Source of the DNA: a virus
Lineage: Duplodnaviria > Caudoviricetes
Virus record (IMG/VR): IMGVR_UViG_3300021400_001615
Location: 64,001 to 128,000 of that record
Direction: 5' to 3' (one strand)
DNA length: 64,000 bases
Shown here: piece by piece, positions 23,246 to 23,549 of the stretch
Layout of the letters: every line of letters begins with the position of its first letter
Numbering within the stretch: position 1 is the stretch's first letter
The notes under the pieces: generated by a model
The model's input: the letters and a program-made list of their open reading frames with translations, nothing else
What the model was told of the DNA's origin: nothing
Databases searched by the model: none
Translations under genes and position numbers: made by a program

Positions 23246-23549
23246 AGCCCCTTAGCATAATTTGGTAATGCACCGGTCTCTTAGCTTAATTTGGACACCT
23301 AGATACGAAAGGTCTAGTGTGAATTGTGCCTAATTCGACGAAACTCTCATATGAGACAACGACGAGCTAAATCAAAATATATTTTTGTAAATGTGTAGAG
23401 ACTATATAGCACACATCTAAGTCCTATCGGATATGATGAAGAAATAGTCCAGACCACAACGCATATGCGGCTATGGTGACATAGAGTGGTAAGAAAACCG
23501 TGATATCCCTCTGAAGGAGGTTATCTGGGTTCAAATCCCAGGGGGGCTG
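23246..23549 (+). tRNA. Intron-split amber-decoding tRNA (CUA), exons 23246-23281 and 23494-23549
   Basis: Acceptor AGCCCCT/GGGGGCT + G73; D stem GCAT/ATGC; spliced anticodon arm CGGT-CT CTA AA-ACCG; 23-nt variable region; T arm CTGGG-TTCAAAT-CCCAG. Confidence 0.88.
23282..23493 (+). ncRNA. Small group I intron (Azoarcus/IC3-like, 212 nt) at tRNA position 35/36
   Basis: AATTCGACGAAAC, CAACGACGAGCTAAA, TGTGTAGAGACTA, GAAGAAATAGTCC; IGS TTT-GGA; terminal G. Confidence 0.9.

Follow-up and report, generated by a model that had tools for sequence, protein, structure and literature searches.

A phage amber suppressor tRNA gene split by a group I intron carries a spare glutamine-type anticodon loop that probably lets host enzymes charge it

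The window analysed here is a stretch of 64,000 nucleotides, bases 64001-128000 of a complete phage genome of 160,883 bp (~161 kb) with direct terminal repeats. At 23246-23549 it holds a tRNA gene that is interrupted in its anticodon loop by a group I intron (Table 1). Joining the exons (23246-23281 and 23494-23549) yields, in the spliced sequence, a 92-nt cloverleaf with the anticodon CUA, which is present only once 23282-23493 has been removed. The anticodon arm reads CCGGU-CUCUAAA-ACCGU, the D arm has a 4-bp stem (GCAU/AUGC) with a 9-nt loop containing GG, and the T arm, in the 3' exon, is CUGGG-UUCAAAU-CCCAG. A1 (23246) pairs with U72 (23548), G73 is nucleotide 23549, and the CCA end is not encoded by the gene. 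The A1-U72 pair, G73, the C27.U43 mismatch and the 23-nt variable region, which an earlier sequence-only reading of this DNA had listed, are all present as it described them. A terminator-like hairpin closes the upstream gene and ends 16 nt 5' of the tRNA gene.

Table 1. Features of the split tRNA(CUA) gene and its upstream flank (positions in the window)
Feature	Position	Strand	Description
Terminator-like hairpin	23200..23229	+	11 pairs (6 G-C), then T-rich tail; ATTTTTTACG
5' exon	23246..23281	+	acceptor strand AGCCCCU; U8 A9; D arm; A26; CCGGU; C32 U33 C34 U35
Group I intron	23282..23493	+	212 nt, inserted between U35 and A36 of the anticodon loop
3' exon	23494..23549	+	A36 A37 A38; ACCGU; variable region; T arm; acceptor strand GGGGGCU; G73
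Variable region	23502..23524	+	23 nt
Variable-arm hairpin	23506..23518	+	UCC (23506-08)/GGA (23516-18), 7-nt loop CUCUGAA (23509-15)
C27	23273	+	opposite U43 (23501); mismatch topping the anticodon stem

The split amber-suppressor gene is real. An intronless tRNA on another viral contig (L258) is identical to the spliced product at 87 of 92 positions, and the intron-bearing orthologue of a related phage (G001) keeps all helices through four double compensatory changes, at pairs 6-67, 13-22, 51-63 and 52-62; the gene is therefore beyond chance. Among 28 intronless relatives, 17 of the 22 pairs of the consensus cloverleaf covary. BLAST searches with the exons found no match in E. coli genomes and chance-level matches to assorted tRNAs in phage records. 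Standard tRNA finders miss this gene because the intron splits it: ARAGORN reported no tRNA in the unspliced window, and a 93-base tRNA(cta) once the exons were spliced. The genome carries four ordinary tRNAs elsewhere, and the split gene is its sole tRNA(CUA).

The intron lies between positions 35 and 36, and the stop-reading anticodon is therefore absent from the DNA. The splice junction CUCU/AAAA is the only one that the intronless relatives, L258 included, allow. As read from the sequence, U35 (23281) can form a U.G wobble with G23293 at the splice site, flanked by the guide pairs C23280-G23294 and U23279-A23295, in agreement with the earlier proposal that U35 supplies the U that splicing requires. 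P1 has only three exon pairs beside the splice site; an extended P1 would have six pairs and a single mismatch. The last 24 nt of the intron comprise a hairpin, CUAUG-GUGA-CAUAG, and a GUGG that can pair with CCAC at 23459-62; G23493, in the omega-G position, ends the intron directly before the 3' exon. In a search of this region by itself, the Rfam group I model RF00028 matches 23278-23469 at 50.5 bits (gathering score 50, E 5.7e-12); the gathering run over the whole window lacks this match. The G001 orthologue has a 194-nt intron in the same position, and the two genes agree at 80.5% of the 113 aligned nt covering the 3' part of the intron and the 3' exon. In G001, GGAG faces CUCU at the splice site; its intron gave no Rfam group I match at E 0.01.

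It is conceivable that the gene is dead, its intron remaining unspliced and the phage relying on another suppressor. Such a gene could well show the threshold-level Rfam score (50.5 against 50), the missing match at E 0.01 in G001 and the short P1 described above. We regard it as very improbable, since the exons are intact and G001 carries compensatory changes, since this complete genome, which requires a tRNA(CUA), has no other, and since three further group I introns lie in the window. The latter are on the forward strand inside the virion gene block (16154-16432, 16557-16819 and 20880-21221) and score 60.7, 100.9 and 65.7 bits, each reaching or exceeding the Rfam gathering score. Cyanobacterial tRNA-Leu(UAA) and tRNA-fMet and proteobacterial tRNA-Arg and tRNA-Ile also have group I introns in the anticodon loop. 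Like these, the intron described here follows a U that can pair with a G of the internal guide and ends in a G; unlike these, it resides in a phage suppressor tRNA.

The need for a suppressor is evident from the coding sequence. When TAG is taken as a sense codon, the ORFs above 150 aa in the window add up to 22,404 aa instead of 14,407 aa, and the longest one grows from 1,704 to 4,755 aa; a frame of 4,753 aa contains 92 TAG codons. We translated all ORFs of the genome with TAG as X and compared them by tblastn with five related phage genomes. X lay opposite TAG 81 times in conserved contexts, and the residues facing TAG (n=229) included 78 Q, 21 N, 18 K, 18 E, 17 D, 13 S, 9 L, 6 Y and 2 W. 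Log-likelihoods, which use substitution frequencies from the same alignments, were -561 for Q, -750 for K, -848 for S and -1133 for W, placing Q ahead by 189. TAG as glutamine, the meaning that the sequence-only reading had suggested for its amber suppressor, is thus well supported by this five-relative comparison. In a complete relative of 131.8 kb (G005), which lacks a tRNA(CUA), almost nothing is gained by reading through TAG; this sister with the standard code can help to date the recoding. Shine-Dalgarno sequences precede 47% of the ORFs of the phage against a background of 8%, which points away from Bacteroidota as host.

The most unusual part of the tRNA is its variable arm. We scanned IMG/VR three times, with two anticodon-arm sequences and with an arm-independent pattern (CUCUAAA, a long spacer and GGTTCGAATCC), and obtained 81 distinct long-arm tRNA(CUA), which fall into two classes. 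The first has 70 members, in which the 1-72 pair is neither G-C nor C-G; in 65 of them the variable arm has YUGA at its tip. The second consists of 11 tRNAs with G1-C72 and Ser- or Leu-like bodies, of which two have YUGA; of 188 variable arms from Ser, Leu and Tyr tRNAs, nine contain the motif. Most genes of the family are intronless.

In an alignment of 59 family members the hairpin with the UCC/GGA stem is 88% paired overall and has a covariation score of 0.55, compared with at most 0.22 in slid controls. Two of its pairs (alignment A2) form in every member: 12-22 as CG in 38, GC in 16, UA in 4 and AU in 1, and 13-21 as CG in 49, GC in 6, UA in 3 and AU in 1. RNAalifold on 28 full-length members likewise returns the cloverleaf plus a 3-bp hairpin with a 7-nt loop, omitting pairs 1-72 and 27-43. 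The CCTC/GAGG stem noted earlier is 66% paired across the 59 members, no better than slid controls, and gives way to UCC/GGA, which covariation backs. In the phage's own sequence taken alone, the cloverleaf with CCUC/GAGG is about 3 kcal/mol more stable (-30.9 against -27.8 kcal/mol), and this register would hide C34 and U35 of the loop described next.

In the UCC/GGA register the loop CUCUGAA reads C32 U33 C34 U35 G36 A37 A38, the anticodon loop of tRNA-Gln(CUG), and it is the true anticodon loop in four reference tRNA-Gln(CUG) genes. Its columns are strongly constrained across the 59 members: U33 in 51, C or U at 34 in 57, U35 and G36 in all, and A37 in 58. Loop size ranges from 4 to 8 nt, with only 4-6 nt in a few members. 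Elsewhere in the molecule, 65 members have at 1-72 U-A (21), A.C (16), A-U (13), U.U (10) or another weak combination (5), with G73 in 56, G2 in 63 and G10 in 61; the mismatch at 27-43 is C.U in 27 and G.U in 28 (non-Watson-Crick in 55 of 65). A weak 1-72 pair, G73, G2 and G10 are identity elements for E. coli GlnRS (PMC9976931), and the acceptor ends of the family fit them. Three other readings of the arm were dropped: an extended second stem (A10-U28, U11.G27 and A12.G26 in alignment A1) is possible in this phage and not conserved in other subtypes; pairing of YUGA with the T, D or anticodon loop finds no conserved complement; and a K-turn or box-D reading of CUGA fails as the 3' strand pairs directly with the stem.

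Long arms typify class II tRNAs, and the tRNA could in principle be a Ser, Leu or Tyr suppressor charged through its arm, TAG then meaning one of these residues. Class II tRNAs (Ser, Leu and bacterial Tyr) and supD-like Ser suppressors do share with it a long stem-loop variable region, G73 is the Ser discriminator in E. coli, its anticodon arm is that of tRNA-Ser(CGA) with G35U, and Ser-type and Leu-type tRNA(CUA) exist in other phages. Those long-arm tRNA(CUA) with G1-C72, which score as Ser or Leu, nevertheless form a separate class. Unlike class II tRNAs, the present one has a type I D arm with its 4-bp stem, a weak A1-U72 in place of G1-C72, a conserved loop sequence, and a variable stem of only 3 bp between long unpaired flanks of 4 and 6 nt. 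TAG faces S, L and Y only 13, 9 and 6 times out of 229, and S trails Q in likelihood (-848 against -561). The idea that the long arm is of the Ser, Leu or Tyr kind is thus not upheld, the arm being a copy of a Gln anticodon loop, and of all the explanations we weighed a class II suppressor is the least credible. In eight other loci (L298, L374, L376, L307, L320, L332, L351 and L314) the tRNA(CUA) has G1-C72, a Ser- or Leu-type body and an ordinary long arm, and TAG may mean Ser or Leu in the phages concerned.

Among long-arm tRNA(CUA) without YUGA, one from a phage of 146 kb (G006) proved informative. Its variable arm (L280) forms a 5-bp hairpin with the loop GUCCAAA, which is the anticodon loop of tRNA-Trp. 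In the same phage (locus L380, G006:C1:10182-10354) the tRNA(CUA) lies directly 3' of the phage's tRNA-Trp(CCA). Comparing the G006 genome with 78 related loci, we found W at 445 of 853 residues facing TAG, with a log-likelihood of -1673 for W against -2873 for F; on this comparison, G006 reads TAG as Trp. TAG-to-Trp is not among the reassignments described by Borges et al. (bioRxiv 10.1101/2021.08.26.457843). Thus, in two independent cases, the spare-loop triplet tracks the meaning of TAG; no other finding argues as strongly for the arm as an identity element. We infer that it is read by host enzymes.

Host enzymes are the probable charging agents, since the phage itself appears to supply none. 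Searches for the domains of the Gln/Glu, Trp/Tyr and class II core (Ser/Thr/Pro/His) synthetases and of the RF-1 release factor (PF00749, PF00579, PF00587 and PF00472) gave no match in this genome or in four relatives (G001, G003, G004 and G005). The dedicated synthetase that the sequence-only reading had entertained was therefore not found among the families searched, and the rest of the genome, where a synthetase or release factor had been thought worth seeking, lacks these synthetase families and the RF-1 domain. We also clustered the ORFs within 3.5 kb of 64 family members and found no recurring partner gene resembling a charging factor. What recurs are spurious frames over the tRNA, TAG-rich GIY-YIG homing endonucleases and a 113-aa coiled-coil protein, the last upstream in 12-13 loci; beside the tRNA of the present phage, only the spurious frame over the gene itself clusters. 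The GIY-YIG genes, with 10-17 in-frame TAG codons, stand directly beside the family tRNA(CUA) in many phages (for example L352:3703-4278, L335:4760-5416, L312:14083-14775 and L300:6353-7186), and the suppressor locus appears to be a preferred site for mobile elements.

The anticodon arm equals a Trp arm with C35U, as the sequence-only reading had noted, and this part of the match stands; the same arm is found in tRNA-Ser(CGA/UGA), which accounts for 90 of 116 viral matches in a scan for the 3' half of the arm followed by a long spacer. The resemblance therefore says little about origin. The Trp profile ranks first when the anticodon arm is counted (41.5 bits, Ser 36.4), as it does for 44 of the 70 family members; once that arm is left out, no amino acid is preferred (Lys 26.1, Thr 24.9, Trp 24.5, Gln 19.1). 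Scoring of the body by nearest neighbour and by profile against 948 phage-borne tRNAs did not separate a Trp from a Gln origin. A 35-nt pattern of D arm plus anticodon arm, built on intronless members with the anticodon left free, matched tRNA-Trp(CCA) in all four of its GTDB hits, and some family members therefore carry a Trp-like 5' half. Descent from tRNA-Trp, as proposed earlier, is thus possible on thin evidence: it draws on the profile with the arm, and loses its signal without it. A1-U72 and G73 are not specific to Trp, both occurring in the tRNA-Gln(UUG) of this phage, G001 and G005. These tRNA-Gln genes (G000:C1:29116-29190 in the present genome, outside the window; 162164-162239 in G001; 77532-77605 in G005) have A1-U72 rather than the usual bacterial U1-A72. 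Two viral contigs, L110 and L071, encode tRNA-Trp(CCA) with enlarged variable regions of 11-17 nt, with a UUCG hairpin in that of L110.

A Trp origin would recall Su7, the amber suppressor derived from E. coli tRNA-Trp. Su7 reportedly accepts some Trp as well. It shares with the phage tRNA a CUA in a Trp-like anticodon arm, U35, G73, A1-U72 and a Gln outcome, its charging with Gln being stated in PMC9976931. One could thus picture a tRNA-Trp turned into a suppressor by C35U, charged with Gln through U35 and G73 alone, its arm being an unrelated peculiarity that calls for a dedicated synthetase. The Trp-type anticodon arm, the profile scores that include it and the four tRNA-Trp(CCA) hits in GTDB would all fit. 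Set against this, the Trp signal vanishes without the anticodon arm, tRNA-Ser has the same arm, and A1-U72 with G73 also marks the phage's own tRNA-Gln; no synthetase gene of the families searched was found, nor any conserved partner adjoining family members. Su7 is a laboratory point mutant with a 5-nt variable loop, whereas the phage tRNA has a conserved extra hairpin and, unlike Su7, shows no detectable Trp character beyond the anticodon arm. The invariant YUGA loop and its Trp-loop counterpart in G006 would go unexplained. A contribution of U35 and G73 to charging is plausible, and leaves the conserved arm to be explained; as a full account, we judge this scenario improbable.

We propose instead that the phage makes a tRNA(CUA) from an intron-split gene, reads UAG as Gln, and through the spare Gln anticodon loop lets host enzymes charge the tRNA, an account that we consider probable as a whole. 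Splicing would give the CUA arm, with which the ribosome would decode UAG; host GlnRS, or a non-discriminating GluRS followed by GatCAB, would accept the tRNA, the spare loop supplying the anticodon determinants, above all G36, that CUA lacks. GlnRS is missing from many Firmicutes. More tentatively, and with slightly more doubt than confidence, we suggest that decoding and identity reside on two arms, the ribosome reading CUA and the host synthetase (GlnRS or GluRS, and TrpRS for the Trp version) the spare loop, with the arms perhaps swapping places. In its crystal structure, GlnRS lies along the inner side of the L, where it reads an anticodon about 70 Å from the acceptor end. A 3-bp variable arm, placed on the outer side, should not reach the anticodon site unless the tRNA refolds. 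An exchange of arms at a junction loosened by the 27-43 mismatch might bring the spare loop within reach; we found no conserved alternative fold for such an exchange among family members. E. coli GlnRS already charges amber suppressors whose acceptor end is of a good Gln type and which have no such arm; charging may thus not need it.

This geometric difficulty, together with the variation in loop size from 4 to 8 nt, would suit a hairpin that is functional and yet never read as an anticodon, one that keeps off synthetases such as TrpRS and LysRS, binds a factor of the phage or of the host, or stabilises the fold, its likeness to Gln being a coincidence. TrpRS and TyrRS approach the tRNA from the side of the variable arm, and an arm placed there could block both. 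A coincidence of this kind seems unlikely to us, if less so than the Su7-like scenario: the invariant bases fall exactly at 35, 36 and 37 with only C or U at 34, ordinary long variable arms seldom have the motif (9 of 188), and the loop becomes CCA where TAG means Trp.

A precedent for the principle exists in the thrS mRNA operator of E. coli, an anticodon-arm mimic that recruits the synthetase. Like the spare arm, it is a hairpin, apart from the anticodon arm of the tRNA itself, that displays the cognate anticodon loop; the thrS mimic sits in an mRNA and is regulatory, whereas the phage copy sits inside the decoding tRNA and would set its amino-acid identity. The phage also resembles the code 15 phages (crAss-like, Lak, phAss-1 and others), which have a CUA tRNA, in-frame TAG codons in virion genes and TAG as Gln; they too have no phage synthetase, and charging by the host is assumed (bioRxiv 10.1101/2021.08.26.457843; PMC10607447; PMC9523058). 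The text of these papers does not describe a second Gln-type loop, and, unlike the suppressors described there, the present tRNA(CUA) gene is split by a group I intron. When phage tRNA(CUA) were tested in E. coli extract, 28 of 29 inserted Gln (bioRxiv 10.1101/2025.10.30.685624). In the literature on phage tRNA(CUA) charged with Gln we found no account of a spare anticodon loop.

Because the Gln and Trp synthetases depend on the anticodon, the identity of a stop-reading tRNA in a standard-code host has been puzzling in the papers on recoded phages. A spare loop that follows the meaning of TAG, Gln in the present phage and Trp in G006, is a concrete and easily tested answer. If true, the spare loop would add a new type of identity element to those known in tRNAs, and would give phages a portable way to assign to a stop codon the amino acid of any anticodon-dependent synthetase; engineered suppressor tRNAs could also borrow the design. 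Only 40% of the TAG-recoded genomes of Borges et al. (bioRxiv 10.1101/2021.08.26.457843) yielded a suppressor, and split or oversized genes that escape tRNA finders help to explain recoded phages that appear to have none.

One further tRNA-like gene missed by ARAGORN lies in the window at 1888-1957 (+), with an Rfam RF00005 score of 36.7 bits, above the cut-off. By eye, its acceptor strands are AGAGUAU/AUAUUCU and its anticodon loop is UUUGGGA (UGG, Pro); the T loop, GGCGGCA, is odd.
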